From sequence record PQ338057.1: DNA of 64,000 nucleotides, one strand, 5' to 3'. Position 1 is the first letter of the stretch. Every line of letters begins with the position of its first letter. The notes beneath the pieces were generated by a model. It saw nothing but the letters and a program-made list of their open reading frames with translations. It was not told the origin of the DNA and ran no database searches. Positions 5,586-52,746 of this stretch are shown here, piece by piece. Made by a program: the position numbers and the translations under genes. The DNA is from a phage.

Positions 5586-6697
5586 TGTGCAGCTCCTGGT
5601 TTGGCCTCACCAATCACCACTTCATCGCCCGCTTCAAGCCCTTTGACAATCTCAACATCGGTATCGTTACGTGCGCCAATCGTCACTTCACGCTCGCGTG
5701 TTTCACCATTACGCAACAATTTGACTTTATAACGATTATCGCCAACCGGATCGCCTAACGCCGACAGAGGGATCGTCAGCACATTTTTCACATCGGTGAG
5801 CTGAATATGCACTTGCGCAGTCATATCCAGCCGCAGCAAACCATTGGGGTTGGGGACTTCAAAACGGGCGTAATAGAAAATAGCGTCGTTAACCTTTTCC
5901 GGCGTCGGTAGTACATCCTTGATTTGCCCCTCGTAGCGCGTCAGTGGATCGCCAAGCACCGTAAACCAGGCTTTTTGCCCCGGCTTCAGGTGGATTACAT
6001 CCGCTTCAGAAACCTGCGCTTTTACCAGCATGGTGCTCATATCTGCCAGCGTCAGAATGTTCGGTGCTTGTTGTGCGGCAATCACCGTCTGGCCTTGCAG
6101 AGTGGTGATTTGCGTGACTTCCCCGGCCATCGGGGCAACGATGCGAGTGTAATCGAGATTGGTTTTAGCCGTATCGAGAGAAGCCTGATTGCGCTTGATT
6201 TGCGCGTCAATGGTGCCAATTTGCGCCTGTTTCACAGCCATCTCCGTCGCGGCGGTGTCGAGATCCTGCTGTGAAACAGCCTTCGTTTGTGCCAGACGTT
6301 GCTGACGGGAATACGTCACCCGCGCCAGTTTCAGCTCCGCTTCCGCCTGCTGCCGCTGCGCGCGTAGCTCCATCAGCGTTGCTTCGACCTCCTTGATCTG
6401 GTTTTCAGCCTGTTCAGGATCAATGACCCCTAAAAGCTGGTCTTTTTTTACTTTATCGCCAATCGCCACCGACAGCGTTTTCAACTGACCGCTGACCTGC
6501 GCGCCCACGTCAACCTTACGCAGCGCGTCCAGCTTTCCGGTCGCCAGCACGCTTTGCTGTAAATCACCGGGGCGCACAATCAGTGTCTGATAAGTCGGCA
6601 CGGGTGCGTTAAGAATTCTCCATAACGTAATCAGTCCGGCGATGACTATCACCAGCGCAATAACGTAACGCTTCTTCACGGTTTTCCGCTTTTTCAT
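5582..6697 (-). CDS. macA: Macrolide efflux periplasmic adaptor MacA
   Basis: 371 aa from MKKRKTVKK; 4-bp overlap with macB. Confidence 0.92.
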
Positions 6698-6811
6698 AAA
6701 TATTCTGAATACTCCATATGCCAATCCGGGTCATTAACTTCAACGAAATATCAACAAACCCCTAAAATTTACGTTAGTAATCACACTATTGATGTTTGGT
6801 TAAGATACGCA

Positions 6812-7804
6812 ATGGTGAAATCGACGTCATGTATAACCATTGATTTCATGAATATGTCGCAGCTAACTGAACGGACCTTTACGCCATCTGAATCTCTCAG
6901 CAGCCTGTCACTTTTTCTTAGTCTGGCACGTGGACAGTGTCGGCCGGGTAAATTCTGGCATCGCCGTAGTTTTCGCCAGAAATTTTTGCTGCGCTCGTTG
7001 ATTATGCCGCGTTTAAGCGTTGAGTGGATGAACGAACTTTCCCACTGGCCTAATCTCAATGTATTGTTAACGCGCCAGCCGCGACTGCCTGTGCGTCTGC
7101 ATCGCCCTTACCTTGCGGCGAATCTTAGCCGTAAGCAATTGCTGGAGGCGTTACGTTACCATTATGCGTTACTCCGCGGATGTATGTCGGCGGAAGAATT
7201 CAGCTTATATTTGAATACCCCCGGGCTGCAACTGGCGAAGCTGGAAGGCAAAAACGGCGAGCAGTTCACGCTTGAGCTGACCATGATGATCTCAATGGAT
7301 AAAGAAGGTGACAGCACAATCCTGTTCCGCAACAGCGAAGGTATTCCTCTGGCAGAGATCACGTTTACCCTGTGTGAATATCAGGGGAAAAGAACGATGT
7401 TTATTGGCGGACTGCAAGGCGCAAAATGGGAAATTCCACATCAGGAAATCCAGAATGCGACGAAAGCCTGCCACGGGCTATTTCCCAAACGCCTCGTGAT
7501 GGAAGCGGCCTGTCTGTTTGCCCAACGTTTGCAGGTAGAGCAGATTATTGCCGTCAGCAATGAAACGCATATTTACCGCAGCCTGCGTTATCGCGATAAA
7601 GAAGGCAAGATCCACGCTGATTACAACGCTTTCTGGGAATCGGTTGGCGGCGTATGTGATGCTGAACGCCATTACCGCCTTCCAGCACAGATAGCACGAA
7701 AAGAGATTGCCGAAATCGCCAGTAAAAAACGGGCTGAATACCGTCGGCGCTATGAGATGCTCGACGCTATTCAGCCACAAATGGCCACGATGTTTCGCGG
7801 TTAA
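6812..7804 (+). CDS. ybjX: YbjX (VirK-like, DUF535) protein
   Basis: 330-aa ORF at the position expected from synteny; start not verified. Confidence 0.8.
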   Translation: MVKSTSCITIDFMNMSQLTERTFTPSESLSSLSLFLSLARGQCRPGKFWHRRSFRQKFLLRSLIMPRLSVEWMNELSHWPNLNVLLTRQPRLPVRLHRPYLAANLSRKQLLEALRYHYALLRGCMSAEEFSLYLNTPGLQLAKLEGKNGEQFTLELTMMISMDKEGDSTILFRNSEGIPLAEITFTLCEYQGKRTMFIGGLQGAKWEIPHQEIQNATKACHGLFPKRLVMEAACLFAQRLQVEQIIAVSNETHIYRSLRYRDKEGKIHADYNAFWESVGGVCDAERHYRLPAQIARKEIAEIASKKRAEYRRRYEMLDAIQPQMATMFRG

Positions 7805-9459
7805 TCCGCGCGACCGCGCGCCAGCCACAGCACGCGTGAGAACATTTTTTTCAGCAGCGTCGGTACGGAGTCCACACCACGACGTCCTGCCTCCATTGCC
7901 ACTTCAATGGCAAGATCGGGTTTGGAAGAGCGATGGATCGCTTTCGAGATAATTTTGCGTAGATTCATCGGTACATTTTCCGGGATTTGCGCCATGCGGT
8001 GGAACACATCGGAAAATCCCTGGCGATACATAAAATGTTCCATATCCAGCGCCGGTAACGCCGTTAAATGTTCTCGTTCGGCTTCCCGATCGTTATTCAA
8101 CAGGCTGCGTACCGTAGCGGCATATTTCTTCCCTGCTTCATCGCCATCGACCAGTACATGCCATTCAATCCCCATTCGGCGGGCAAATTTAACCAGTGGC
8201 TTTAGCCCGGACTGGGCAAACTCAATGACCTTGATCCCTTCGGCATCAAAATGATGTCCGCACTGACGCGCCAGTTCATTGATAACCCAGGTTTCCGTTT
8301 CCCCTTCCACCAGCAACCAGCAGCGTGCAAACAGCGATGACGGACGGTTAAAACGAATGTGAAAGGATATGCGTCGGCTATCTTCGGTACTCAAGCCACT
8401 CGGCCCCAGACGCCAGGCGGCAACGCGCGAGGACTCACGTACCAGTCGGCAAACATGCTCTACCGGCGTTAACGAAAGCAACTCACCCGAGTTGGTGGTG
8501 GCAATGCGCTGCAATGGCAGAAGATTCAACAGATGCCAGGCAACTGAAAGCATAATGGGGTGTAAACGGGTTTCTGGATCTTCGATCAGCAACAATGGAC
8601 GGGCGTCTTTATCCAGTCGCAATGTGCCTTTTGCCTGCAACAAAGTAGCAAACAGGCCGAGCAAAATAACCCGATACGAGCGCCCACCAGGTCGGTCAAT
8701 CATCCGGTTGATGATATCCAGATAGCGCCAGCTTCGTTGCTCATTGCTGGCTCGCCGCCGCATTAAACGATATCGCGCCTGTCCGGCCCCCTGCTCAGAG
8801 AAATAATGCTCAAGCAGCTGTACCATTGCGGAAAGTCCCTGACGAATCTGCCCATCAGAGAGATTTTGCGGATGTGAGGATAACTCACGGGCGAGGAAAT
8901 CGAGCTGGCGCGCGGTGACTTCCACATTAGGGACATTTGGCACCGTGCCGTTACGAATACGGCGCATAAAACGGGCATCACGCAAGCGCAGCACCGGCAT
9001 TAAACGCACCAGATGGCGTGCCTGATCGTTAATATCCTCGACATCAATCGGATGTCCGTCTTTATCGAGAAAACTGCGCAGTGTCATCACGCTGCCGTCT
9101 TCCGCACTCTCCCCTTCCAGACGATAAAAAATACGGTGATAGCCATCGGTGCATGGCGTCCAGCACGCTTCCAGCGGCCGATAACGGCGAACCCGATGTC
9201 GGCCTGGCAGCGATTCGCGGAAGGTCAAAATAATATGCAGATGATGTTCTCGCCCGTTGATATCTCCCGGCGGGAACCAGAAATCGTCGCGCTCAAAATG
9301 GTAGAGATCTGATTCTGGCGATAGCAGCAGAGTTAAGGCGTCCAGCAAGCTGGATTTACCCCACGCGTTCTCCCCAATCAGGACGTTGTTTTGTTCCAGC
9401 ATCAACGACAAACGGTTGATACCGCGAAAACCCACAATTTCAACGCGCTCAAGAATCAT
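7801..9459 (-). CDS. ybjD: OLD-family-like ATPase/nuclease YbjD
   Basis: 552 aa; N-terminal P-loop GENAWGKSS; conserved synteny. Confidence 0.88.
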   Translation of the reverse strand: MILERVEIVGFRGINRLSLMLEQNNVLIGENAWGKSSLLDALTLLLSPESDLYHFERDDFWFPPGDINGREHHLHIILTFRESLPGRHRVRRYRPLEACWTPCTDGYHRIFYRLEGESAEDGSVMTLRSFLDKDGHPIDVEDINDQARHLVRLMPVLRLRDARFMRRIRNGTVPNVPNVEVTARQLDFLARELSSHPQNLSDGQIRQGLSAMVQLLEHYFSEQGAGQARYRLMRRRASNEQRSWRYLDIINRMIDRPGGRSYRVILLGLFATLLQAKGTLRLDKDARPLLLIEDPETRLHPIMLSVAWHLLNLLPLQRIATTNSGELLSLTPVEHVCRLVRESSRVAAWRLGPSGLSTEDSRRISFHIRFNRPSSLFARCWLLVEGETETWVINELARQCGHHFDAEGIKVIEFAQSGLKPLVKFARRMGIEWHVLVDGDEAGKKYAATVRSLLNNDREAEREHLTALPALDMEHFMYRQGFSDVFHRMAQIPENVPMNLRKIISKAIHRSSKPDLAIEVAMEAGRRGVDSVPTLLKKMFSRVLWLARGRAD

Positions 9460-9883
9460 ATCCCCTCCAGAAATATGTGACTTATCCTTTACGCTGGCAG
9501 TATAACGGGAAAGGCCTTGCTAATACGTGATGACATCACATTTAAGCATGGCAAATGTCTGAAAAATGAGCGAATAATCGCGTTATACTCCCTCTTGCTG
9601 ATAAGTCTGCAAAAACAACAAAATCAAATAATTAGCATGATAAATTATTTTTTATTACGCCTAAAGGATTAAATCTTTTGCTTGCACTACACTGTCAATC
9701 AGACAAACGACTATATGGGGCAACCCGCTGTTGCCCTAAATCAAATTTACTGGATTTATTTATCTGGTGAATGACTCGCCTTCGTTTTTAAAATAGCCGC
9801 GCATTATTTCCGTCGTCACTTTTTACGACGGCCCTATAAAACGACCATATTTTTCACAGGGTCAATTTTTAATTGAGGTGGAT

Positions 9884-11073: not shown

Positions 11074-11973
11074 ATGTTTTCTGGGCTGTTAATCATTCTG
11101 GTTCCCCTGATTGTGGGTTACCTCATTCCGCTTCGCCAACAAGCTGCGTTAAAAGTTATTAATCAGCTATTAAGCTGGATGGTTTACCTTATTCTCTTTT
11201 TTATGGGTATCAGTCTGGCGTTTCTCGATAACCTCGCCAGTAACCTGTTGGCGATTCTGCATTATTCTGCCGTCAGTATTACCGTTATTTTACTGTGTAA
11301 TATTGCCGCCCTGATGTGGCTGGAGCGAGGCCTGCCGTGGCGCAACCACCATCAGCAAGAAAAACTCCCGTCGCGTATTGCGATGGCGCTGGAGTCGCTA
11401 AAACTGTGCGGCGTAGTAGTGATTGGTTTTGCCATTGGTCTGAGTGGACTGGCTTTCTTACAACACGCGACCGAAGCCAGTGAATACACGTTAATTTTGC
11501 TACTTTTCCTCGTTGGTATTCAGTTGCGCAATAATGGCATGACCTTAAAGCAGATTGTCCTTAATCGCCGGGGAATGATTGTCGCCGTGGTGGTGGTTGT
11601 CAGTTCATTAATTGGTGGTTTAATTAACGCCTTTATTCTTGATCTCCCCATCAATACCGCGCTGGCAATGGCCTCCGGTTTCGGCTGGTATTCTCTTTCC
11701 GGTATTTTATTGACCGAATCTTTTGGTCCGGTAATCGGGAGCGCGGCGTTTTTTAATGATCTGGCCCGTGAACTGATTGCTATTATGTTGATCCCTGGGC
11801 TGATTCGCCGCAGCCGCTCTACTGCACTGGGCTTATGCGGTGCCACATCAATGGATTTCACCCTGCCCGTTCTTCAACGTACTGGCGGGCTGGATATGGT
11901 CCCGGCGGCAATTGTTCACGGTTTTATTCTTAGCCTGTTAGTGCCGATCCTCATCGCCTTTTTCTCTGCGTAA
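11074..11973 (+). CDS. ybjE: Inner-membrane lysine exporter YbjE (LysO)
   Basis: 299 aa from MFSGLLIILVPL; polytopic membrane protein. Confidence 0.85.
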   Translation: MFSGLLIILVPLIVGYLIPLRQQAALKVINQLLSWMVYLILFFMGISLAFLDNLASNLLAILHYSAVSITVILLCNIAALMWLERGLPWRNHHQQEKLPSRIAMALESLKLCGVVVIGFAIGLSGLAFLQHATEASEYTLILLLFLVGIQLRNNGMTLKQIVLNRRGMIVAVVVVVSSLIGGLINAFILDLPINTALAMASGFGWYSLSGILLTESFGPVIGSAAFFNDLARELIAIMLIPGLIRRSRSTALGLCGATSMDFTLPVLQRTGGLDMVPAAIVHGFILSLLVPILIAFFSA

Positions 11974-12116
11974 TACCTCTCTGGCGGTAGAGCCCTGCCG
12001 CCAAAATTGCGCTAAATCAATCTCCCTTAAAGTTGCATGAAAAATCCCTTTTATCCCCGCGTTAAGCGTCTTAACCTTAAACATGTATATTAAATATAAC
12101 TTTAAAAGGTGTGATC

Positions 12117-25084: not shown

Positions 25085-25195
25085 CGGGGGGTTTTGTAGG
25101 TCTGATAAGACGCGCCAGCGTCGCATCAGACATCAGCACGGTGCCTGTGCCGGATGCGGCGGGGACGCCTTATCCGGCCTACATAGTGCATAAAT
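25085..25195. repeat. REP/BIME palindromic units
   Basis: gccggatgcggcg ... cgccttatccggcctaca REP-type palindromes. Confidence 0.6.
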
Positions 25196-36111: not shown

Positions 36112-37797
36112 GTGAATATAAACGTCGCCGAATTGTTAAATGGGAATTACATTCTGTTATTATTTGTGGTCCTCGCGCTTGGGCTATGTCTCGGAAAGTT
36201 ACGACTTGGTTCGATCCAACTGGGTAATTCCATTGGCGTTTTAGTCGTATCGCTGTTATTAGGCCAACAACATTTCAGCATTAACACCGATGCGCTTAAT
36301 CTTGGCTTTATGCTGTTTATTTTCTGCGTCGGGGTCGAAGCCGGACCGAACTTTTTTTCCATTTTTTTTCGCGATGGGAAAAATTACCTAATGTTAGCAC
36401 TGGTGATGGTTGGCAGTGCGCTGGTGATCGCCTTAGGGTTAGGTAAGCTGTTTGGCTGGGATATTGGCCTGACGGCCGGTATGTTAGCAGGCTCTATGAC
36501 GTCGACACCGGTTCTGGTCGGTGCTGGCGATACACTGCGTCATTCCGGCATGGAAAGCAGGCAGCTCTCACTGGCACTGGATAATCTGAGCCTCGGGTAT
36601 GCCTTAACCTATTTAATCGGTCTGGTGAGTTTGATTGTTGGTGCGCGTTACTTGCCGAAATTGCAGCATCAGGACTTACAGACCAGCGCCCAGCAAATCG
36701 CCCGCGAACGTGGCCTGGACACTGATGCCAACCGTAAGGTTTATTTACCGGTGATCCGCGCCTATCGCGTCGGCCCGGAACTGGTGGCCTGGACCGACGG
36801 CAAAAATCTGCGTGAACTGGGTATTTATCGACAAACCGGCTGCTACATTGAACGTATTCGACGTAACGGGATTCTGGCAAATCCAGACGGTGATGCCGTG
36901 CTACAAATGGGCGATGAAATAGCGTTGGTAGGCTATCCCGACGCCCATGCCCGACTCGATCCCAGCTTCCGTAACGGTAAAGAAGTTTTCGATCGTGACC
37001 TTCTCGACATGCGTATCGTCACTGAAGAAGTGGTCGTTAAAAACCATAACGCTGTAGGTAAACGTCTCGCACAACTGAAGTTGACCGATCACGGTTGCTT
37101 CCTTAACCGCGTCATTCGTAGCCAGATTGAGATGCCGATAGATGACAACGTCGTGCTTAACAAAGGTGACGTTTTACAAGTCAGCGGCGATGCCCGCCGC
37201 GTAAAAACCATCGCCGATCGCATCGGCTTTATCTCGATTCACAGCCAGGTCACTGACCTGCTGGCATTCTGCGCCTTCTTTGTTATTGGGCTGATGATCG
37301 GGATGATCACCTTCCAGTTCAGCACATTCAGTTTCGGCATGGGGAACGCTGCCGGGTTGTTATTCGCCGGAATTATGCTGGGCTTTATGCGTGCTAACCA
37401 CCCGACCTTCGGTTACATTCCGCAGGGTGCATTAAGCATGGTGAAAGAGTTCGGCTTGATGGTGTTTATGGCAGGCGTTGGTCTGAGCGCCGGTAGCGGT
37501 ATTAATAACGGCCTGGGCGCGATTGGCGGTCAGATGTTGATTGCCGGATTGATTGTCAGTCTGGTGCCCGTGGTTATCTGTTTCTTGTTCGGTGCTTATG
37601 TATTGCGAATGAACCGCGCGCTGTTGTTCGGCGCAATGATGGGCGCACGTACCTGCGCGCCGGCAATGGAGATCATCAGTGATACAGCTCGCAGTAACAT
37701 CCCGGCGCTGGGCTATGCGGGCACCTATGCAATCGCCAACGTCCTGCTGACGCTGGCAGGGACAATCATCGTCATGGTATGGCCAGGATTAGGATAA
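36112..37797 (+). CDS. ybjL: Putative transporter YbjL (duplicated membrane domains plus cytoplasmic domain)
   Basis: 561 aa; conserved synteny. Confidence 0.9.
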
Positions 37798-37918
37798 AAC
37801 TGAAGTTGCCCTGAAAATGAAATTTTTTTGCACAACCGCAGAACTTTTCCGCAGGGCATCAGTCTTAATTAGTGCCACTGCTTTTCTTTGATGTCCCCAT
37901 TTTGTGGAGCCCATCAAC

Positions 37919-37961
37919 CCCGCCATTTCGGTTCAAGGTTGATGGGTTTTTTGTTGCCTGA
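37919..37961 (+). terminator. ybjL intrinsic terminator
   Basis: 10-bp stem cccatcaacc/ggttgatggg followed by T-run. Confidence 0.55.
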
Positions 37962-38009
37962 AATTTATGCTCTTTAAAATCATGATGTTAGAAGCACTGT
38001 TTTTTAACG

Positions 38010-38032
38010 ATGGCGACAAAATGGCGGCAGCG
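38010..38032. repeat. Prophage att core repeat (ogr-proximal end)
   Basis: atggcgacaaaatggcggcagcg; 22/23 identical to 61982-62004; abuts ogr stop codon. Confidence 0.6.
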
Positions 38033-38284
38033 TCAAAGAGAGAGCGCCACCTGTCCTGATTTCATTGGATGCGGCTGAACCGGATTTGACTCTTTTGGCG
38101 TTGCAATCGAACGAACAAAAGTTTCATGAGTAACAAAAGTATGGCTGCAGTTAATGTTCTGGCACTGGTTGTAACGCTCTTTGGTCAATGAAGATACCTG
38201 AAAACTGCTGCGAGTATGGGCGGCACTTCCACACAGTGGGCAAATCATCATTTTTCGAGTTCTCCCCATTTTTGCTAAATTCAC
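38033..38284 (-). CDS. ogr: Ogr/Delta-type zinc-finger late-gene activator
   Basis: 83 aa; CPLCGSAAH...CQNINCSHTF four-Cys motif as in P2 Ogr. Confidence 0.85.
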   Translation of the reverse strand: MNLAKMGRTRKMMICPLCGSAAHTRSSFQVSSLTKERYNQCQNINCSHTFVTHETFVRSIATPKESNPVQPHPMKSGQVALSL

Positions 38285-38341
38285 AATAATGATACCGCAT
38301 TATTCCATTTTGAGAACTTAAAAGTTCTCCATTGCGAAGAA

Positions 38342-38710
38342 TCATTCCATTTCGAAATCATCAATCTTCACTTCAAGCTCCAGACTGGTCGTAAAACCGT
38401 TATCCGGGCTGACAGTATGCGTCAGGGTGGTAATAGTCCATTCCGCATCATCTATCGGCTGTTTAAAGCCACTGACTTTCACTGGCATTTCCGTGTAGAG
38501 ATCTGCCCGCCCTTCCGCCAGTTGTAGCGAGAATGACGCAACGCCGCGTTGCAGGCGTTCCCACTGCATTTTCGCCGCTCGTTCGGCGTTGCTCCGGTTG
38601 GCATAAGTGCGATTAAGTACCAGCACGTTTTCATCCGTACCCACCAGGTAATCGCCCTGCTTCGCTTCCGGCTCTTTCTTCTGCTTCTTAGTTCTGCGCT
38701 TACGCTTCAC
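38342..38710 (-). pseudogene. C-terminal remnant of P2 gpD-like late tail protein
   Basis: 122-aa ORF immediately upstream of ogr as in P2 (U-D-ogr); far shorter than gpD (~390 aa); fused to the invertase remnant. Confidence 0.55.
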
Positions 38711-38988
38711 CGTGGTGCTTTCTTTCTTCGCAGGTTCGCGGGTAACTCTTCTATCAGCGTAACAAGATGCCGCATACTGCGCCCCAACCTGTCCAGCTTC
38801 CAGACAACCAGCGTGTCTCCTGCCGATAGTGTCCTGAGCAGTTTTTTCAGCCCCGGTCTGTCGGACTTAGTGCCGCTGATTTTATCCTCAAAAATCCGCT
38901 CACATCCCGCGCAGTTCAGCGCACTACGTTGCAAATCGGTGTTCTGGTCATTTGTTGACACGCGTACATAGCCAATAAGCATGATCAT
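38707..38988 (-). pseudogene. Truncated Gin/Pin/Hin-family serine DNA invertase (N-terminal ~80 aa only)
   Basis: MLIGYVRVSTNDQNTDLQ...DTLVVWKLDRLGRS matches the invertase catalytic domain; C-terminal HTH domain absent. Confidence 0.75.
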
Positions 38989-39009
38989 CTCCTTGAATAA
39001 AAATCGGGG

Positions 39010-39552
39010 ATGATGCCAGTTAGTCGTAATCGCTGCATTTTCTTAAACGTTGGTTTGGGAGAAGACTCTGCATTACCTGTTGGGGTGCCTGTTCCGTGGC
39101 CTTCAGCCACTCCGCCTACAGGCTGGCTGAAATGCAATGGTGCAGCTTTTTCTGCTGAAGAATACCCGGAACTGGCAAAGGCTTATCCGACAAATAAATT
39201 GCCTGATTTACGTGGTGAGTTTATTCGTGGCTGGGATGATGGGCGTGGTATTGATGCTGGACGTGCCTTGCTAAGTCTTCAGAATGGAGGAGTGGAATCA
39301 CACACCCACCAGGGACAGCTCTTCAGAGTCAGTGATTATCGTACAAAAGAAATACCAGCATCAGAAGTTATGGGAAGAGGATATATTGCAAGCCTGACGC
39401 CGGGTGCTGATAGCCCACTTGATTTTGATGATTATTCTGTATCCTCTAATCCAAATGGATATTTTGTCGGGAATCAGAGAACAACAGCATATGGGGTAAA
39501 TGAAACCCGCCCACGGAATATTGCATTTAACTATATCGTGAGGGCTGCATAA
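39010..39552 (+). CDS. Alternative tail-fibre C-terminal cassette (promoterless) in invertible segment
   Basis: Opposite orientation to H; shares the GLG junction with H at the crossover repeat; followed by its own tfa gene. Confidence 0.7.
   Translation: MMPVSRNRCIFLNVGLGEDSALPVGVPVPWPSATPPTGWLKCNGAAFSAEEYPELAKAYPTNKLPDLRGEFIRGWDDGRGIDAGRALLSLQNGGVESHTHQGQLFRVSDYRTKEIPASEVMGRGYIASLTPGADSPLDFDDYSVSSNPNGYFVGNQRTTAYGVNETRPRNIAFNYIVRAA
39041..39064. repeat. gix/hix-like invertase crossover site (invertase-proximal)
   Basis: ttcttaaacgttggtttgggagaa; 13-bp core ttggtttgggaga is a perfect inverted copy of 41127-41139. Confidence 0.55.
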
Positions 39553-40154
39553 TGGATAACGCTGTATTAAATAGCGAGCTTATTGCCACGAAGGCGGGAA
39601 ATATTCCTGTCTATAACTATGATGGTGAAACACGGGAATATATTTCCACTTCAAATGAATATCTTTCCGTTGGTGTCGGCATTCCGGCATGTTCCTGTTT
39701 AGATGCCCCTGGCACACATAAGGCTGATTATGCAATCTGCCGTTCTACAGATTTTAACTCATGGGAATATGTGCCAGATCATCGCGGTGAAATCGTCTAT
39801 AACACCGAAACGGGAGATGCCAAAGAAATCACAGCTCCGGGTGATTACCCTGAAAATACAACCACTATCGCACCGTTAACGCCATACGATAAATGGGATG
39901 GTGAGAAATGGGTGACAGATACTGAGGCACAACACGGTGCCGCAGTAGAAGTGGCAGAAGCACAACGCCAGTCACTGATTGATGCAGCAATGGCTTCCAT
40001 TAGTCTGATTCAGCTGAAATTGCAGGCCGGGCGGAAGCTGATGCAGGCAGAAACCACCCGACTTAACATTGTGCTGGATTACATTGACGCGGTGACGGCA
40101 ACAGATACCAGCACCGCGCCGGATGTCATCTGGCCTGAACTGCCGGAGGCGTAG
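39552..40154 (+). CDS. Tail-fibre assembly chaperone (alternative Tfa)
   Basis: 200 aa; convergent with the prophage G-like tfa; typical Mu-G-segment-like layout. Confidence 0.75.
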   Translation: MDNAVLNSELIATKAGNIPVYNYDGETREYISTSNEYLSVGVGIPACSCLDAPGTHKADYAICRSTDFNSWEYVPDHRGEIVYNTETGDAKEITAPGDYPENTTTIAPLTPYDKWDGEKWVTDTEAQHGAAVEVAEAQRQSLIDAAMASISLIQLKLQAGRKLMQAETTRLNIVLDYIDAVTATDTSTAPDVIWPELPEA

Positions 40155-40563
40155 GCCATTCAATATCTGGCACACTGGAGGTATCAACCAGCTCCAGTGC
40201 GTCCAGATAATCCAGCCACGAATTATATTGCGCCAGTTCCTCGCCTTTCAGACGACCAATAGCGGCTTTACCGGGCCATTGTTTACTGTTCATGTATTCG
40301 TTGGCCTGATTAATTAATAGCTGTCTTTTTGACTCAGAAATTTCAATAAGTTCTTCATGCGTGGGTGAAGGAATATCTGCCCACGCAGGCATTCCGTCTG
40401 CACCTGCAATACGTCGCTTACCCTGCGGAGGTGTCGCCATAAACGACTCGGCACGTCGGGTTTCAATATCTTTTGCATCATCAGGCCATGTGCCGGAATC
40501 GCGGTATACGGCCTCATTACCAGCCAGATAAAACGCATTTTTTTTAGCACTGTATTTGTACAT
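40126..40563 (-). CDS. Tail-fibre assembly protein (P2 gpG-like)
   Basis: 145 aa directly downstream of H. Confidence 0.8.
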   Translation of the reverse strand: MYKYSAKKNAFYLAGNEAVYRDSGTWPDDAKDIETRRAESFMATPPQGKRRIAGADGMPAWADIPSPTHEELIEISESKRQLLINQANEYMNSKQWPGKAAIGRLKGEELAQYNSWLDYLDALELVDTSSVPDIEWPTPPAVQAR

Positions 40564-40564
40564 A

Positions 40565-42187
40565 TTATTTCCCTACCGCAATCCAGAAAAATGAACTCAT
40601 GCTGGCTACTGGTGCTCCGCCCGCTGTTGGAATCATCAGATTTCGGACGCCGCATCCTAAATTAGTTATCGTTGGCGCTGAAATTACTGGCGACTGAACT
40701 ACGTTAGGAAGCGATGCCTGCTGAGGACCAAATCCCACATACATCGGGTATGCAGAGAACGCGACAGGAAACGTAATAAAGATCTCTCCAGTTGATGATG
40801 GATTGGCTGCCCCCCACTGAATAATCAGACCTGACGGTAATTTTTGCCAGCCAGGGCTGGTCAGGCTGGATGTGAAGTCATTCATATCCGGAATCTGATT
40901 TGCCCCTGAGCCAACATCCCTTTGAGCCGCACTTTTCAGATCAAGATAAGTTCTTAGTTCAGCCTTATCCTTACCGCTTAAATCTGTCAGTGTCTGGTCT
41001 TTTGGTTGCGCATAGTCTTTTGTTGCCAGACGAACTACTGTATTTGTTCTGGCGAATCGCATATACGGGGCATTGACGTTACTACTGTCAAACCCTGCAA
41101 TTTTACATTCATCACCAATTAATGCATCTCCCAAACCAAGGTATGCGAGAAGACCAGCTACATCCTTTCCACTCAAATTAGTCAGCGTATTGTCCAACGG
41201 TTGTTTACCTGCCAGCGCATTAAGCATTGTCGTGGCAAAGTTCGGGTCATTCCCCAGCGCCGCAGCCAGTTCGTTCAGTGTATCCAGTGCAGCAGGTGCA
41301 GACCCCACCATTGCCGCAATTGCCGATTTCACAAAAGCCGTGGTGGCAATCTGTGTATTGTTAACCGACTGTGCGGCAGTGGGGGCTGTTGGCGTTCCGG
41401 TGAATGCCGGACTTAACAGCGGCGCTTTCAGTGCCAGCGCATTGTTAATGGTGGTACTGAATTTCGGGTCATTATTAATGGCAGCGGCAATTTCTTTCAT
41501 CGTATCCAGTGTGGCTGGCGCACCATTAATAAGGGCCATCAGTGCCGCCTGAACAAACGCGGTGGTCGCAATCTGCGTGGTGTTATTCCCCTCCGCTGGC
41601 GTTGGCGCTTTGGGTGTTCCGGTCAATGTCGGGCTTTCTTTGGGTGCATACTGTGAATGCGGGTCCGGTGCGGCAAGATGTTTTGCCATCTTATCATCCA
41701 CGAACACCTTCAGCTCCAGTACCTTGTCATCCACATACTTGCGGGTTGCCAGCACGACGGCAGGGTCGATTTTCAGGGTGATATTGTCCGTGCTGCTGGT
41801 AATCAGCACCATGCGCACGGTCTGGGTACGCCCACTGCCTTCAGCCAGTTGCGGCTTATAGCTTTCCGGGCAGTTTCCCACGGCAATCAATGCCCCGGAC
41901 TCATCAAACAGGCCCACTTCACGTATCCACCAACCGCCCTCATTTTCAGGGATTACCTGTTCAGCAATAATCTGGCTACTGTTCTGCGGGTCGATATAGA
42001 GCATATTCAGCGCAGCCCGGCGTTTCTCATTCACCAGTGCAGTCTGCTTTGCATCCGGCGTTGGCAATACTCCGCCGCCATCGCCGACCGCCATATGGGT
42101 AATTTTTAAAGGCACACCGAGCGCGGCGGCGCTGGCAAGTTTCGCCGCGCCAATATCCGTCAGCAGGGTATAAAATTTTGTGCTCAT
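40565..42187 (-). CDS. Tail fibre protein (P2 gpH-like)
   Basis: 540 aa; N-terminus MSTKFYTLLTDIGAAKLA...MAVGDGGG resembles P2 H. Confidence 0.88.
   Translation of the reverse strand: MSTKFYTLLTDIGAAKLASAAALGVPLKITHMAVGDGGGVLPTPDAKQTALVNEKRRAALNMLYIDPQNSSQIIAEQVIPENEGGWWIREVGLFDESGALIAVGNCPESYKPQLAEGSGRTQTVRMVLITSSTDNITLKIDPAVVLATRKYVDDKVLELKVFVDDKMAKHLAAPDPHSQYAPKESPTLTGTPKAPTPAEGNNTTQIATTAFVQAALMALINGAPATLDTMKEIAAAINNDPKFSTTINNALALKAPLLSPAFTGTPTAPTAAQSVNNTQIATTAFVKSAIAAMVGSAPAALDTLNELAAALGNDPNFATTMLNALAGKQPLDNTLTNLSGKDVAGLLAYLGLGDALIGDECKIAGFDSSNVNAPYMRFARTNTVVRLATKDYAQPKDQTLTDLSGKDKAELRTYLDLKSAAQRDVGSGANQIPDMNDFTSSLTSPGWQKLPSGLIIQWGAANPSSTGEIFITFPVAFSAYPMYVGFGPQQASLPNVVQSPVISAPTITNLGCGVRNLMIPTAGGAPVASMSSFFWIAVGK
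41127..41152. repeat. gix/hix-like invertase crossover site inside H
   Basis: tctcccaaaccaa is the reverse complement of the 39050-39062 core; sits at the GLG codons of H. Confidence 0.55.
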
Positions 42188-42789
42188 GGATTCACTCTCA
42201 TTGTGTCAATAACATGGACCGCCCCGCCTTCATGCGCGGTGCCACCGGAAATAATTGTTTCGTTGATATACGGATAGATCGTGATTTCTTCGCCAAGATA
42301 GCTGGCGGCTCCCACCCAATGCGGGCCGCTGGTCTGCAGGTTGATGGACATGCCGATCATGTGACGGCTGCATGGTTTGGCATCGCTTATCAGTCGCTCA
42401 AGTTCCAGATAGGTATCTTCAGTGATGCCCTGGTCCTGCACGCCGATATCCAGACGAAACGTGCCCGGTGTCTCTCCGGTCTGCCACCACTCAATAATGC
42501 GGATCAGAAAGCCGAACGGCTCCACCACCCGCCGCACGGCACTGGTGGTCCCTTTATGCTGATGAATATAAAAAGCATCCTTCACCACCTGGCGCTTGAC
42601 ACTTTCTGTCCAGTCCTCGTCCCAGCGATCCACAGAGAACGCCCAGGCGAGATAAGGCAGGAAACTGACCGGACAGGTTGCCGGATTCCACAAGTCACGA
42701 AGCGGCACCTGCAGATCAGAAATCCCGCTGCAGGTTTGCGCCAGTCGGCGCTCCAGTGGTGTTGAACCCGGTGGCAGCAGACTATTCAT
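42184..42789 (-). CDS. Baseplate assembly protein (P2 gpI-like)
   Basis: 201 aa; position between J and H. Confidence 0.85.
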   Translation of the reverse strand: MNSLLPPGSTPLERRLAQTCSGISDLQVPLRDLWNPATCPVSFLPYLAWAFSVDRWDEDWTESVKRQVVKDAFYIHQHKGTTSAVRRVVEPFGFLIRIIEWWQTGETPGTFRLDIGVQDQGITEDTYLELERLISDAKPCSRHMIGMSINLQTSGPHWVGAASYLGEEITIYPYINETIISGGTAHEGGAVHVIDTMRVNP

Positions 42790-43690
42790 CCGTTCCTCCG
42801 TTGGTTACGCTCCACTGCGTACATGATGCCGCCTGTGTTTTGTTCAGGACCACATCCGCCAGAGGAGAAGCCAGCTCCACACGCTGCACACCCTCAACAT
42901 GCAAGGCGGCAAAGATGGCGCTACGGCGAATATCCCGACCAAGACGCGTCTGACTGGCGATGTACTTCTGCAGGCTGGCTTTTGCCGCTGCCATTACCGG
43001 CTCTGCTTCCGGTCCCGGATAGAGAAAAATGGTGGCTTCCACGCGATACGGGATGATTTCTGCGCTGCGAACCGTCAGACGGTCAGCCACCGGGCGGACG
43101 TTCTCACTGTTCAGGGCTTTTTCCACCACATCCAGCAGGTCTTTTTCTGCTGTTCCGTCGCCTTCACGGCTAAGGACAGTCAGTACCACCTCTGCAGGTG
43201 CCGGACTGGTTGCACTGGCATCCGCCACCCGACCGTCGGCGCTTCGGGCATGAAATTCATAGGCTGCAGTTGGCCCCGCAACTGAAAGCCCTTCAAAGGC
43301 TGCAGGCACACGCAGGCGTAACGCTTCATCGCTTTCCATCACAGCCGCAACGGGCGGCACAGCGTCATTATCAGCAGGCGTCACCGTCAGGCGTTTCACG
43401 TTGTAGTTGGCAGCGAGCTGGTCAAGATCGCCGCCCATCGCGTAAGCCACCATCACCGCCTGCGCGGCTTCGTTAATGCGCTGGCGCAGAAGCAACTCAC
43501 GGTAAGCATTCTCCTGCAGCAATTTGGTGACGGGTTCAGATTCCAGTTCCAGCGTGCGGATCACGGCTTCCTGCTCATCTTTCGGATGAAGCGCAACAAA
43601 TTCGGCCTTGCGTTCGGCAAGCAACGTCTCAAAGTCCGGCACATCGACAATCTGCGGCGCAGGCAACTGCGAAAGGTCAATCACTGCCAT
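42782..43690 (-). CDS. Baseplate assembly protein J (P2 gpJ-like)
   Basis: 302 aa from MAVIDLSQLPAP; closely resembles P2 gpJ as recalled. Confidence 0.88.
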   Translation of the reverse strand: MAVIDLSQLPAPQIVDVPDFETLLAERKAEFVALHPKDEQEAVIRTLELESEPVTKLLQENAYRELLLRQRINEAAQAVMVAYAMGGDLDQLAANYNVKRLTVTPADNDAVPPVAAVMESDEALRLRVPAAFEGLSVAGPTAAYEFHARSADGRVADASATSPAPAEVVLTVLSREGDGTAEKDLLDVVEKALNSENVRPVADRLTVRSAEIIPYRVEATIFLYPGPEAEPVMAAAKASLQKYIASQTRLGRDIRRSAIFAALHVEGVQRVELASPLADVVLNKTQAASCTQWSVTNGGTDE

Positions 43691-44036
43691 TCTCTGCTCC
43701 TGTTGATACGGAAAGGGAAACAGGCACACCGTTATTACGCCGCCCGGTCAGTCCCACCACCATTGAACCGTCAAAATTGCTGTTAATGGTGATGGAATCC
43801 AGCGTCAGCCGTGGCTCCCAGCGACTCAGCGCCACATACACTGCCGACATGACCTGCAGGCGTAACGCCGGATTTTGTGGCTGGTCTATCAGTGCCGACA
43901 GCAGGGAACCATATTCACGGCGAGCAATGCGGCTACCCTGCGGCGTCAGCAGAATGTCCCGCACCGACTGGCGCAGATGGTCAATATCAGTAATGACTTT
44001 GCCGCTGGTATTGTTCATCCCGCTATAAAGCGTCAT
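43677..44036 (-). CDS. Baseplate protein W (P2 gpW-like)
   Basis: 119 aa between V and J. Confidence 0.8.
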   Translation of the reverse strand: MTLYSGMNNTSGKVITDIDHLRQSVRDILLTPQGSRIARREYGSLLSALIDQPQNPALRLQVMSAVYVALSRWEPRLTLDSITINSNFDGSMVVGLTGRRNNGVPVSLSVSTGAENGSD

Positions 44037-44714: not shown

Positions 44715-45521
44715 ATGAGTGTTATGAATCCAATAAGTTCTAATATATTTAATGCTGAATTTTTAAACACCCCGGCAGCGGCACTTGCCGCATGGATTTC
44801 CATTATTGGAGCTGTTATAACTTTGGTGACGATAGTTATAAGAGCACTATTCAAATATAGAAAATCTCATGATGTAATTTTGAAAAAATCAGGAATACCT
44901 GCGTTTATATTAAATTTTTTTCTTATACGAATATCATTAAAAAGGCTGCCTACTATCACATGGGCTGAAAAATCAATCACGGTTCTCTTTTCACTTCTTT
45001 TTTTGTGTGCAATTTATATTTTTGGTCCAGTTTTCATCCAAGCCATTAGAACCCCACCAAATAGCACATTGCTTTATTGGATAAAGTCCGGTGAATCATT
45101 TTATATGTCAAAAAAACTGGCGACTGCAGCTACAATATTAACCACTCCTGATTGGGAAATATCAAAAGATGATTGCGAAGAGTCATCCTCTGCCAGTACA
45201 GAGAAGTACAAATCATTAACTATCGAACATAAAGAAATTCTTTGTAAACTACTAACCACTGATGAAGGGAATACTTACATTGATGAAGAAGTCAAGAATT
45301 TCGTTAAAGACAAATTCTTTATCTATTCCTTTGCCCCAACAACCATATTTATTCTATTATGGATTTCTTTGGGTTTTATACTGACCATTCACTATTCTAA
45401 AAAAGTTAGGAAATATATTCTGACTGAACAAAAAAATGCAATTCATTGGGCATATGGTGAATTCAAGACAGAAGGAATCTATTCAATATATCACGAGTTA
45501 GAACGTAAGACTCACCATTAA
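44715..45521 (+). CDS. AT-rich cargo gene encoding a polytopic membrane protein
   Basis: 268 aa with several hydrophobic helices; SD aggtgg; anti-oriented between S and V where P2 has no gene. Confidence 0.6.
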   Translation: MSVMNPISSNIFNAEFLNTPAAALAAWISIIGAVITLVTIVIRALFKYRKSHDVILKKSGIPAFILNFFLIRISLKRLPTITWAEKSITVLFSLLFLCAIYIFGPVFIQAIRTPPNSTLLYWIKSGESFYMSKKLATAATILTTPDWEISKDDCEESSSASTEKYKSLTIEHKEILCKLLTTDEGNTYIDEEVKNFVKDKFFIYSFAPTTIFILLWISLGFILTIHYSKKVRKYILTEQKNAIHWAYGEFKTEGIYSIYHELERKTHH

Positions 45522-46586: not shown

Positions 46587-46857
46587 GTTTCAGTTCCTCG
46601 ATCCGGTGTTGTCGTTGTCTCAGCAGTGCACTGGTCTGTTCTGCTTCGGCATAGAGCCGCGCCTGCTCCCGGTTATTGGTTTCAGTCAGAATGGACAGGC
46701 TGATAAGCTGGCTGTTTTTCTTCGTCAGTTCCTGCGCTTTACTTTTCAGCGCCGCGCGCTGCGTTTCGATGGTGTGGCTGGCGCTGTTAAGCCGCCACGA
46801 CTGCCAGCCCAGCGCAACGAGTGCCAGCGCCACCACTACTGCCAGCGCACGCGTCAT
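46429..46857 (-). CDS. i-spanin (LysB/Rz-like)
   Basis: 142 aa; N-terminal TM then coiled-coil-rich periplasmic region. Confidence 0.65.
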   Translation of the reverse strand: MTRALAVVVALALVALGWQSWRLNSASHTIETQRAALKSKAQELTKKNSQLISLSILTETNNREQARLYAEAEQTSALLRQRQHRIEELKRENEDLRRWADTPLPADIIRLRERPALTGGTAYRQWLSASDAVSAGSGNAAH

Positions 46858-46993
46858 AGTCCAGCTCCTTTAAGGCACCAGGCCATCTCCCGCGCACGGC
46901 GGTTATCCAGCCCCTGATTAAACACACCTTTTACATAAACCCAGCGCGGCAACTGTCGGCACGCATCTGCCCAGCGCCGCTGATTGAGCAATT

Positions 46994-47746
46994 TCACCAG
47001 TGTGGAACTACAGGCATTGCCCGTTGCTGCTTCTGCAGAGCAGACTCCAGTTCAGACAGGCGTTCTTCCTGCTCAGACAGAGATTTTTCGGTTCGCGCGC
47101 TCAGGTTTTGCTGCTCAGTGGCGACCAGCTCCACGGCCTTATGCACATCAGAGAACCGGGCGTCATCGGACTGCTCTTTTTTGGTGAACAGCGCCGTGAC
47201 GCGGGAAAACAGGGACGGTTTGTCGTCCTGGACTTCCTCCAGTTCGATCACCGTTTCCTCTGCAGCGGTAAAGAGATTGGCAGGATTCTGCTTGCGGTTT
47301 GCCAGCGGGTTATGGGCTGCACTGGCGCTGAATGTCAGCATTTCAGTGCCCAGACTGGCAGGGTCATCAGTGGCAGCCAGGCCGACCAGGTAGGCTTTGC
47401 CCGTATCAGCGAACTTCGGGCTGACTTCCATAGAGGTGAATAATTTCTGGCCTTTTTTCACCAGTTCCACCAGGGACTCCGTTGGCTCAACGTCGGCATA
47501 CAGCGCCATCTTGCCTGCCAGCGGACCTTCCGTGATTTCCTCAGCAAACAGCGCCGTCACCTTGCCGTAGCGGTTAAAGGTGCTGTCCGGCAGATAAGAC
47601 TTGATGTGCTCAAGGTTAATCAGCGCGGTATACACCGCCGGGTTGTAGCTGGCTGCCATCTGTTCCAGCCATTCACGCTGGATTTCGCGTCCGTCGGTGG
47701 TGGCACCTTCCACCCCGATGCGAAAACGCTTTGCTTTCACTGTCAT
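46994..47746 (-). pseudogene. Capsid scaffold protein (P2 gpO-like), C-terminally truncated
   Basis: 250 aa, resembles P2 gpO; divergent from P; the downstream N-M-L-X-Y-K-lysA block is missing. Confidence 0.7.
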
Positions 47747-50688: not shown

Positions 50689-50716
50689 CGAAGACCATTA
50701 GGTCTTCGCTTTATTT
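50689..50716. terminator. Hairpin between convergent portal and retron RT genes
   Basis: cgaagacc-atta-ggtcttcg followed by ctttattt. Confidence 0.45.
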
Positions 50717-51660
50717 AAAGGGTTCTTTCCATATTTTTTTTCTAATTTGCTAATATAAGTTATTAATCTCCTATGGCTTTTTGAATCCACACTTAAAATA
50801 AATGACAACCATCCCCTAACGTGTTCTATCTCAGAAGACTTACCGCAAAATATATGATGTATCTTTGCTCTAATTTCTTTATATTTTTCTCTACCTATCC
50901 CAACTTTCTCTTGTGAAATAACTAAACCTGTAACTTTCCTCTGACTACGAGGCCCACTAATACAAGTTTTTTTTGAGTTAATAACCAATCCTTCACTTGG
51001 GATTATAGAAAATAAAAAATCACGTGCTTTAACAACCTTTTTCATAGACTGTGCAGATAAGGTGAGATCATCGGCATATCTCGTATATATCAAGCCCCGA
51101 CTACCTGCATAACCCTGAATACGATAATCAAGTTTAGAACATATTAGATTAGCTAATTTAGGTGATGATGGAGCACCTTGTGGTAGCAGATTTTTATAAC
51201 AACATATTTTTGTCAAAACTGAAGATATTAGTCGATTATAACCAAGAGAATGGAACACTCCAAAAACTTTGTTAGCAGTTAAACTTGGGAAAAAATCCTC
51301 CAAATCAATATTCAGTATAAAGTTTGCCCCAATATGCGGGGTAGCATTATTCAAAATAGATTGGTGCTTTTCAAATCCAATAGAAAAAGGAGATGACGAC
51401 AGTTTATCTAAAATGTTACGTAGAACCCATCCTTGTAAGGCTTTAAGTTCTCGAGAAGGTTGGTAAATGGTTCTCATTCTCTTCTCTGGGCCTTTCTTTT
51501 CTACAGTGTAGATCCTATAGCGAAAATCAGCTGTATAGATTAACAACCGAAGTGTTTCAACAGATATGCGAGTCGCCTTAGACATGTCATGCAAATTGTT
51601 CATGACAGGTAGGCCGAGATTTCTCAATCTAAAAGTGTTCAAATATTCAGCGGATTTCAT
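50698..51660 (-). CDS. ret: Retron-type reverse transcriptase
   Basis: 320 aa; motifs NATPH (NAxxH), YADD, VTG; AT-rich; ncRNA immediately upstream; from memory matches the Ec86/Eco1 RT. Confidence 0.95.
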   Translation of the reverse strand: MKSAEYLNTFRLRNLGLPVMNNLHDMSKATRISVETLRLLIYTADFRYRIYTVEKKGPEKRMRTIYQPSRELKALQGWVLRNILDKLSSSPFSIGFEKHQSILNNATPHIGANFILNIDLEDFFPSLTANKVFGVFHSLGYNRLISSVLTKICCYKNLLPQGAPSSPKLANLICSKLDYRIQGYAGSRGLIYTRYADDLTLSAQSMKKVVKARDFLFSIIPSEGLVINSKKTCISGPRSQRKVTGLVISQEKVGIGREKYKEIRAKIHHIFCGKSSEIEHVRGWLSFILSVDSKSHRRLITYISKLEKKYGKNPLNKAKT

Positions 51661-51666
51661 GAAAGT

Positions 51667-51836
51667 TGCGCACCCTTACGTCAGAAAAAACGGGTTTCCT
51701 GGTTGGCTCGGAGAGCATCAGGCGATGCTCTCCGTTCCAACAAGGAAAACAGACAGTAACTCAGATTCAATGCAGGATGCCGAAACAACATCCAGAGGTT
51801 GACCTTAATGATAAACCTCTCGCTAAGGGTGCGCAT
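51667..51836 (-). ncRNA. msr-msd: Retron msr-msd non-coding RNA
   Basis: 12-nt terminal inverted repeats tgcgcaccctta (51667-51678) and taagggtgcgca (51824-51835); long internal hairpin; ends 7 nt before the RT start. Confidence 0.85.
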
Positions 51837-52746
51837 ACGGAATCTTATCATAGTTAAATGTTGATTTTCTACGGTTTTCAAAATTCATAATCTCAAGCCG
51901 CAATCGGTCAAGTGTCTTTCTATCAAAGACGCTCCTAACATAGCTAGCCCCCAAAGCAGTGACCTGATAACCATCAGTCATTTGAAGTATTTTTCGTTCA
52001 TTTATTAGACGAGAAACAACGGATCTAACAATAATTTTAGATAAAACATCATCTTGCTTTATCGCTTTAAAAGCTAGTTCACACAGTGTGCGGTAGTTGA
52101 CACTATCCAGTAAATAGATACAAGGCAATAGAAACCGCTCTGCGTATAATATATTTCCAATATCTTTTGATACTTTATTTTCTTTCCTAACCTTCTTAAT
52201 AGATGCCATTAATTTTTTATATAATCGTAATTTTCTGGCAACATCAATAGATGAATCACACATTTCTTTTAGTTCATTTGAACTACAACGCAAAACAGAT
52301 TTTGAATTAAACTTACGCAACAGGCGAACAGGACCATAGTTAATAAAGCTACGTTTTGATTTAAATTTTGCATCTTGAATGCAAATCAACTTTCTCCTTA
52401 AGTTTTCATTATTAGAGAACGCACCAAGCTCTGTGAAAGACCCCGGACTTTCAGGAAATAAAATTATTACATCGACAGCTTCAGCCAGAATATTTTCTAA
52501 ACTTAAAAGGCTATGCTGCCCTTGACCAGCCAAAAGATCATCAAATAGATCTTCTGGATAAAATATATCAACATCACTGAACTTTGCTAAAAATTGTGAT
52601 AATTGATGACGCCAAGATTGATGATTAGCAACGTCACCACCACATAGAAAAATGGTTATTTTAATATTAGCTCCTCGATAGAAGCCTTTCTTTGTGAGAT
52701 GTCCTATAAGCTGTTGTTGCTGCTCATCGGTAAATTTTTTATTCAT
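51823..52746 (-). CDS. Retron effector (predicted nucleoside-deoxyribosyltransferase-like N-glycosidase with C-terminal DNA-binding region)
   Basis: 307 aa, AT-rich; first gene of the retron operon with its 3' end overlapping the msr start; Rossmann-like N-terminus KITIFLCGG. Confidence 0.75.
   Translation of the reverse strand: MNKKFTDEQQQQLIGHLTKKGFYRGANIKITIFLCGGDVANHQSWRHQLSQFLAKFSDVDIFYPEDLFDDLLAGQGQHSLLSLENILAEAVDVIILFPESPGSFTELGAFSNNENLRRKLICIQDAKFKSKRSFINYGPVRLLRKFNSKSVLRCSSNELKEMCDSSIDVARKLRLYKKLMASIKKVRKENKVSKDIGNILYAERFLLPCIYLLDSVNYRTLCELAFKAIKQDDVLSKIIVRSVVSRLINERKILQMTDGYQVTALGASYVRSVFDRKTLDRLRLEIMNFENRRKSTFNYDKIPYAHP

Follow-up and report, generated by a model that had tools for sequence, protein, structure and literature searches.

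A probable Pin/Gin/Cin-type tail-fibre switch with a truncated invertase in the P2-like prophage of Escherichia coli B

We investigated a candidate host-range switch in a 64,000-nt stretch of record PQ338057.1 (the window, that is, the whole stretch of DNA analysed), which corresponds to E. coli B (REL606/BL21). The locus is very probably an invertible tail-fibre segment of the Pin/Gin/Cin type that has lost its own invertase by deletion, leaving a gp53-like cassette expressed and a tail-collar cassette silent. Its crossover cores, at 39050/51 and 41138/39, are ~2.09 kb apart, and it lies within a defective P2-like prophage adjoining rybB. The B segment is an ordinary decayed case of a well-known tail-fibre switch, involving no new mechanism; our limited literature search found no paper describing the B locus as a locked switch.

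The prophage and its two tail-fibre cassettes

The element carrying the segment is a defective member of the P2-like prophages, and the prophage at the rybB locus of E. coli B has been named Rybb*B (PMC3032704). Prophages of this type have the late genes V W J I H G, then FI FII E T U D ogr, beside an attachment site; in B, V, W, J, I, H, tfa and ogr remain and keep that order. The P2-like rybB prophage of E. coli B also carries retron Ec86, and a second deletion has removed its capsid-to-lysozyme genes. The features of the locus are as follows.

37877–37955, plus strand: rybB, an sRNA gene that marks where the prophage meets the chromosome on the attachment-site side (Rfam RybB, 105 bits)
38033–38251, minus strand: ogr/Delta-like late-gene activator, the final prophage gene (Pfam Ogr_Delta, E = 6.7e-22; RefSeq annotation)
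38342–38743, minus strand: C-terminal fragment of the gpD tail/baseplate hub, a pseudogene (weak Pfam Phage_GPD match, 29.0 bits against a gathering threshold of 30.1)
38742–38744, no strand: junction of the ~6.9 kb deletion, with GTA microhomology (junction sequences directly compared with E. coli strain 1008S19)
38743–38982, minus strand: invertase stub, codons 1–80 of a 188-aa serine recombinase of the Gin/Pin/Cin class (Pfam Resolvase, E = 1.7e-28)
38893–38964, minus strand: recombinational enhancer homologue, nt 19–90 of the invertase gene, kept in the stub (homology to the P1 Cin enhancer)
39038–39063, no strand: left 26-bp crossover site, core TT at 39050–39051, 1 nt off K-12 e14 pixL
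39052–39552, plus strand: alternative H C-terminal cassette of tail-collar type, 166 aa, silent (Pfam Collar, E = 6.5e-16)
39552–40154, plus strand: TfaE-like assembly gene of the silent cassette, 200 aa (Pfam Caudo_TAP, E = 3.6e-30)
40126–40563, minus strand: assembly gene of the expressed cassette, 145 aa (Pfam Caudo_TAP, E = 2.2e-29)
40565–41137, minus strand: variable H C-terminal cassette, gp53-like, the one expressed at present (Pfam Gp53-like_C, E = 4.5e-12)
41126–41151, no strand: right 26-bp crossover site, located in H where GLG is encoded, with its AA core at 41138–41139
41140–42187, minus strand: constant N-terminal part of tail-fibre gene H (Pfam Phage_tail_fib, E = 1.4e-64)

The original prediction of an opposed alternative cassette with its own tfa gene agrees with this arrangement, which is that of Din-family cassettes: two opposed C-termini, each with a tfa gene and both in frame with the constant part. 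When the segment was inverted in silico, the constant part of H was joined in frame to the silent cassette, yielding a product of 516 aa as against the 540 aa found, in line with the anticipated swap of the C-terminus and its chaperone.

The gp53-like cassette is 98.9% identical to that of E. coli PF9285 but shares 33.7% identity with the variable region of K-12 YcfK; it had no match above 60% identity among sequenced phages, and its matches to PDB sequences were weak only. The product of its tfa gene, WP_000280166.1, is also annotated in the e14-like element of PF9285. The collar cassette, annotated as part of a 180-aa ORF from 39010, shares 70.7% identity with the variable region of K-12 StfE; its PDB sequence matches comprised a T4 gp37 fragment (2xgf) and short tail fibres, and tblastn returned similar fibre ends in HK97, HK106 and P2-like phages. 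Its TfaE-like partner is 89% identical to K-12 TfaE, and neither of the two Tfa proteins matched a PDB sequence. A scan of 38700–39300 found no promoter or terminator, so that expression of the small ORF beginning at 39010 is unsupported.

Loss of the invertase and the state of the switch

In recombinases of the Din family (Gin/Cin/Pin/Hin), which are ~185–190 aa long, the catalytic domain is joined by an oligomerisation helix and, at the C-terminus, by a DNA-binding domain of the helix-turn-helix type. The invertase gene of B is a remnant: the adjacent enzyme is neither of that length nor in possession of all the domains, while its homology to the family is clear. Exactly 80 invertase codons remain, where some 80 N-terminal residues had been predicted, and these run into 11 out-of-frame codons and a stop at 38707, the Resolvase match spanning residues 5–82 only of the 93-aa stub ORF. 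The 80 residues of the stub share 94% identity with PinE and 81% with Cin of P1, and all 240 of its 240 nt are identical to the intact invertase gene of 1008S19. RefSeq already labels the B gene a partial pseudogene.

Sequence comparison with 1008S19 shows the truncation to be one end of a ~6.9 kb deletion: window positions 37800–38744 correspond to 1150–2094 of the 1008S19 locus (L003), and 38737–39255 to 8991–9511. Lost relative to 1008S19 are invertase codons 81–188, FI, FII, E, T, U and most of D; the surviving gpD fragment, 97.8% identical to the 3' part of the intact 1008S19 D gene, matches positions 220–302 of the 305 in the Phage_GPD profile and is listed as partial in RefSeq. One illegitimate event at the GTA microhomology fused codon 80 of the invertase to the final third of gpD, costing the invertase its oligomerisation helix and DNA-binding domain and removing all tail sheath, tube and tape-measure genes. 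With the helix and DNA-binding domain deleted, the element's own enzyme cannot drive the switch, and, with the sheath, tube, tape-measure and hub genes deleted, the prophage is unable to make a tail whichever way the segment lies.

The two crossover sites and the stretch homologous to the enhancer survived this deletion. In the P1 record, nt 19–90 of cin are annotated as the Cin enhancer, and the putative enhancer of B is 76% identical to that of P1, 87.5% to pinE and 100% to the intact relative. It lies ~85–160 bp from the left site; a 65-bp enhancer has been described ~100 bp from hix (PMC3798978). In an intact element, the serine invertase, together with Fis bound at the enhancer in the 5' end of the invertase's own gene, would carry out strand exchange at the 26-bp sites, and inversion would swap the last ~170–190 residues of H plus the matching assembly chaperone. 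In B, the switch sits in the position that expresses the gp53-like cassette and leaves the collar cassette silent. The crossover sites and enhancer homologue of B are probably still functional, and, because they are intact, an invertase supplied in trans should act on the segment.

All 44 B-lineage assemblies examined have the orientation of the window and none has the inverted junction, a count taken from consensus assemblies, which are blind to a minority orientation, and weaker than it appears in that many BL21 assemblies are close clones or possibly reference-guided. We infer that the segment does not invert in B cultures. Its frozen state is certain only as regards the element's own invertase. 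In a blastn search (word size 11), no second Gin/Pin-class gene matching the invertase 5' end was found in B chromosomes. A chimeric query identified two pinQ-like places per B chromosome, then confirmed as pinR and pinQ; REL606 has a full-length pinR, with a protein 99.5% identical to K-12 PinQ, and a full-length annotated pinQ. The original prediction, that the segment is locked unless a related invertase acts in trans, was upheld, and its proviso acquired a concrete candidate in the pinR and pinQ of REL606.

These two genes underlie the alternative that the segment is not frozen and that the distantly related serine recombinases PinR (Rac prophage) and PinQ (Qin prophage) flip it in trans, if only after induction such as that by T-even infection. 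We consider this unlikely. Both genes are full-length, inversion of the e14 P segment by PinQ/PinR at TTGGTTTGGGAGAAGG, and their induction by T2, have been reported (PMC12529663), the left and right sites of B retain 15/16 and 13/16 bases of that sequence, respectively, and the enhancer homologue is kept; however, PinR is just 38.9% identical to the Pin/Gin/Cin-type class to which the B stub belongs, the right site of B departs from pixR in its outer half, and the B assemblies show a single orientation. Quite improbable, in our estimation, is the further proposal that E. coli B is a natural pinE-null host with a P-like segment flippable by PinR/PinQ alone, for example during T-even infection. 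Were this true, flipping would give a 204-aa StfE2-like product (a 17-residue leader from 39010 plus the gp53-like cassette) along with the 516-aa H, which could alter phage adsorption, as claimed for K-12 StfE2, and the locked collar-proximal state might help the classical T-even permissiveness of B.

Crossover sites and inversion in relatives

The reading we favor, an invertible segment deprived of its own enzyme, draws further on the crossover sites and on related genomes. The perfect 13-bp repeat was found where predicted, with TTGGTTTGGGAGA at 39050–39062 and its reverse complement at 41127–41139, one occurrence each in the window and one copy at the GLG codons of tail-fibre gene H, as proposed; the extended arms (39038–39062 and 41127–41151) are 25 nt long and 80% complementary. 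As proof of a switch, the 13-bp repeat alone was rejected: perfect 13-bp inverted pairs averaged 0.74 in shuffles of the 6 kb region, with at least one in 40% of shuffles, placing it within chance, and a second perfect inverted repeat, of 15 bp, lies nearby by chance. Because the repeat by itself is not significant, we based the case on the motif of the sites, their alignment and the homology breakpoints.

The gix/hix-like sites that had been postulated proved to be two inverted 26-bp sites with imperfect 12-bp half-sites and an identical 2-bp core, matching e14 pix and P1 cix. In an alignment with e14 pixL/pixR and P1 cixL/cixR, 13 of the 26 columns are invariant, and the cores (left TT, right AA) are the same as in P1. 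Within the window, the core motif AAACSWWGGTWT has two occurrences in all, both at the repeat positions, against an expectation of 0.17.

Homology breakpoints relative to relatives coincide with these sites. An inverted-junction search of 5,426 E. coli genomes yielded PF9285 as the sole non-B match over at least 80% of the query. There, a block equivalent to window positions 39879–41142 and 97.5% identical lies in the reverse direction with respect to an intact pinE. It comprises the gp53-like cassette with its tfa partner and the 3' portion of the second tfa gene, and the homology breakpoints are at 39062 and 41142, that is, at the crossover sites. Likewise, homology to 1008S19 in constant H sets in at 41124, beside the right site. 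Among K-12 assemblies with intact pinE, both orientations occur at 100% identity, so that relatives of the B segment, which itself was seen in one orientation, are found in the opposite one (PF9285) or in both (K-12 e14). The e14 P segment is reported as inverted in 33% of 562 genomes (PMC12529663), and inversion has been experimentally shown in P2-like prophages other than that of B, and in e14 (PMC4272514).

The notion that the repeat is a coincidental coding similarity, arising from GLG codons in two fibre genes in a segment that never inverted, gains something from the chance occurrence of such 13-bp and 15-bp repeats in 6 kb, but it is scarcely credible and, although set beforehand as the outcome that would overturn the prediction, is effectively refuted by the match of the full 26-bp sites and cores to experimentally defined pix and cix, the confinement of the core motif to those two places, the invertase stub directly adjoining one site, the inverted cassette block of PF9285 with its breakpoints at the sites, and the inversion of the homologous K-12 segment.

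For general biology, the import of these findings is small, invertible fibre switches, including those of P2-like prophages, being textbook matter. Their value, a modest one, lies in the precise anatomy (deletion map, intact cis sites, dead enzyme) of a prophage present in every BL21/REL606 culture. In contrast to e14 in K-12, the B locus is expected to keep a constant structure across B-lineage assemblies and so to be usable as a marker, and B offers a clean background, without a Pin-class invertase, for examining the recently claimed action of PinQ/PinR on pix-type sites.

Comparison with known systems

The e14 P segment of K-12 has the same order as B, namely, invertase, collar cassette, tfaE, opposed tfa and gp53-like cassette, represented there by pinE, stfE, tfaE, tfaP and stfP/ycfK, and TTGGTTTGGGAGA is the inverted repeat reported for P inversion (PMC12529663). 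Compared with e14, B has its module in a P2-like prophage, set into a long H gene of the P2 type (540 aa), its invertase is without residues 81–188, and no orientation polymorphism was seen in B assemblies.

The P1 C segment, served by Cin, resembles B in its 26-bp sites with a 2-bp core, the enhancer (putative in B) at nt 19–90 of the invertase gene, and the alternative cassette and chaperone pairs in the style of Sv/U and Sv'/U'. The Mu G segment and Gin follow the same scheme of sites, enhancer and cassette-chaperone pairs as P1. In P1, however, the 3' end of cin abuts cixL, whereas in B the invertase gene has its 5' end towards the site, and the P1 segment is 4.2 kb long compared to 2.1 kb in B.

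The intact P2-like prophage of 1008S19 occupies the same ybjL/rybB position as that of B, with the same gene order. The RefSeq protein accessions of its I, J, W and Ogr are identical to those of REL606, and it is 99.85% identical at the DNA level across window positions 41124–43800 (constant H and the genes beyond). In 1008S19, a 188-aa invertase is followed by FI, FII, E, T, U, D and ogr; both 1008S19 and A41 have a full invertase of 182–188 aa and a complete FI–D tail operon, whereas B has neither. A P2-like prophage with an invertible H C-terminus is likewise carried by EPEC E2348/69 (PMC4272514).

The invertible segment and its crossover sites

The locus lies in the P2-like prophage of E. 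coli B at rybB, named Rybb*B (PMC3032704), in a region that is 100% identical in 44 B-lineage chromosomes, including REL606, BL21(DE3), C41/C43, ATCC 11303 and NCTC 10537. The original prediction described an invertible tail-fibre switch of the Gin/Pin type, with one repeat copy at the GLG codons of the tail-fibre gene H and the other at an opposed cassette with its own tail-fibre assembly (tfa) gene, and the gene layout is as claimed.

Features of the locus
36112-37797, + strand: ybjL
37877-37955, + strand: rybB
38033-38251, - strand: ogr
38342-38743, - strand: gpD C-terminal fragment (RefSeq: partial pseudogene)
38743-38982, - strand: invertase stub (RefSeq: partial pseudogene)
39038-39063: site L, left crossover site, 26 bp, TTTTCTTAAACG-TT-GGTTTGGGAGAA
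39052-39552, + strand: silent collar-type fibre cassette
39552-40154, + strand: 200-aa tfa gene
40126-40563, - strand: 145-aa tfa gene
40565-42187, - strand: H, 540 aa
41126-41151: site R, right crossover site, 26 bp, ATCTCCCAAACC-AA-GGTATGCGAGAA, within H at its GLG codons
Beyond 42184, - strand: I, J, W, V

The 13-mer TTGGTTTGGGAGA (39050-39062) and its reverse complement (41127-41139) each occur once in the window, and a repeat finder extended the arms to 25 nt at 80% complementarity. Taken alone, a perfect inverted repeat of 13 bp is no surprise in 6 kb (shuffles held a mean of 0.74 such pairs); its weight comes from context. The predicted gix/hix-like character holds: when the 26-bp B sites are aligned with pixL/pixR of the K-12 element e14, cixL/cixR of P1 and those of three related prophages, 13 of the 26 columns are invariant, and only one base separates site L from K-12 pixL. 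The core motif AAACSWWGGTWT occurs twice in 64 kb (0.17 expected), at sites L and R only. Between H and J, another perfect inverted repeat, of 15 bp (41476-41490/42982-42996), lacks site-like features and is taken as a chance match, repeat length alone being weak evidence.

Recombination in silico at both cores yielded an in-frame H of 516 aa, reading ...AYLGLG and then EDSALPVGVPVPW.... The expressed cassette carries a gp53-like C-terminal domain; its closest relatives are short fibres of Sf phages, and no sequenced phage matched it at >60% identity. The silent cassette encodes a tail-collar domain; its sequence is similar to a T4 gp37 fragment, to short tail fibres and to fibre ends from HK97 and P2-like phages, and shares 70.7% identity with the variable part of K-12 StfE. 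The constant part of H also contains a 94-nt direct repeat (41321-41414/41543-41636, 71% identity, 222 nt apart) that encodes a repeated ...TGTPTAPT...NTQIATTAFV... motif and resembles repeated elements annotated in P1 S.

Loss of the invertase and decay of the prophage

At this ybjL/rybB position, E. coli 1008S19 carries a nearly identical prophage, whose I, J, W and Ogr proteins share their RefSeq accessions with those of REL606 and which has 99.85% DNA identity to window 41124-43800 (the constant part of H onward). Its invertase is 188 aa long, followed by FI, FII, E, E', T, U, D and ogr. Pairwise BLAST matched window 37800-38744 to 1150-2094 of the 1008S19 locus and window 38737-39255 to 8991-9511; these endpoints imply that B lacks positions ~2095-8990, about 6.9 kb, with GTA microhomology at the junction (38742-38744). 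The invertase, predicted to keep only ~80 N-terminal residues, retains exactly codons 1-80 (MLIGYVRVST...LVTLIEEL, including the conserved N-terminal YVRVST motif), followed by 11 out-of-frame codons and a stop. In Gin and Hin, the part that the stub lacks carries both the oligomerisation helix and the helix-turn-helix DNA-binding domain, and without them the stub product is unable to recombine DNA. At 240/240 nt the stub matches the intact 1008S19 gene, which suggests a recent deletion.

A second internal deletion (46854-47746) joins the gpO scaffold gene (46994-47746) to a lysozyme C-terminal fragment (46854-47024), without the capsid, small terminase, head-completion, tail protein X and holin genes of 1008S19. 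Lacking sheath, tube, tape-measure, capsid and holin genes, the prophage can build no particle to carry either fibre. A DUF6216 gene (44715-45521, +) separates the virion-morphogenesis gene from baseplate gene V and runs on the opposite strand; strain A41 has a DUF6602 gene at this position and 1008S19 has nothing, marking a variable cargo slot of these prophages. Rybb*B also carries retron Ec86, the known retron of E. coli B, as a St85-family reverse transcriptase (50698-51585) and effector (51823-52746; RefSeq; 50698-52746, - strand); msr/msd gave no Rfam match at the gathering threshold. Elsewhere in the window, a lone Rfam CRISPR-DR4 repeat match (153-180, - strand, 50 bits) at its extreme start may be the edge of a small orphan CRISPR array, one of those that PMC3032704 lists for E. 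coli B, and the Rfam small-RNA matches naRNA4 (CssrE, 25099-25179) and ES036 (CssrF, 26159-26201), both on the - strand, are distant from the switch.

Orientation and candidate trans-acting invertases

In the P1 GenBank record, the Cin enhancer is assigned to nt 19-90 of cin. Its homologue in B (38893-38964) falls entirely within the stub, is 76% identical to P1, 87.5% to pinE of e14 and 100% to 1008S19, and is ~85-160 bp from site L, compatible with the ~100 bp spacing of hin (PMC3798978). Both crossover sites and this presumptive enhancer thus survive in B and, judging from their sequences, would still be functional.

Strain PF9285 has an e14-like element at icd (5526-8492 of its locus) with mcrA and an intact pinE. 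A block of it, 97.5% DNA-identical to window 39879-41142, comprises the gp53-like cassette (98.9% protein identity), the tfa gene of that cassette (with one RefSeq protein accession for both) and, from the other tfa gene, the 3' part. With respect to the invertase, this block has the opposite orientation to that in B; the alignments stop at the sites, at 39062 and 41142, and constant-H homology with 1008S19 begins at 41124. Near-identical cassettes in an e14-like element and a P2-like prophage indicate that the module moves between unrelated backbones.

The window's arrangement was found in 44/44 B-lineage assemblies, which are non-independent and, being consensus assemblies, hide minority orientations; no B-lineage genome matched the inverted left junction over >64% of query length. 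As a positive control, queries for both junctions of the e14 P segment showed that K-12 laboratory strains carry either orientation at 100% identity (C600 and J53 the one; MG1655, DH5alpha and DH1 the other). Over >=80% of the query, 913 genomes matched in one orientation and 113 in the other. This is in line with reported inversion in 33% of 562 genomes (PMC12529663) and with mixed-orientation populations in single colonies (PMC4272514).

The expectation that the segment is locked unless a related invertase acts in trans stands for its own truncated enzyme, and candidates for trans action exist. The invertase 5' end (blastn, word size 11) found one place in each B chromosome and no detectable second Gin/Pin-class gene; a chimeric query found two pinQ-like places in most. 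REL606 encodes full-length pinR in Rac (protein 99.5% identical to K-12 PinQ) and full-length annotated pinQ in Qin (29690-30280 and 11387-11977 of the respective REL606 loci), each adjoining what is left of truncated tail-fibre and tfa genes; neither has an obvious invertible segment. PinQ and PinR, 38% identical to PinE, are claimed to invert the e14 P segment at TTGGTTTGGGAGAAGG and to be induced by T2 (PMC12529663); site L has 15/16 of these bases. "Frozen" is therefore certain for the element's own invertase only and likely under ordinary growth, and conditional flipping of the B segment by PinR or PinQ has a low probability.

The original observation and its interpretation are correct, and RefSeq had already marked invertase and gpD as partial pseudogenes. 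The B locus is a decayed example of a class that is thoroughly known, and the strain itself is thoroughly studied; the sites share the 2-bp cores of P1, TT on the left and AA on the right.
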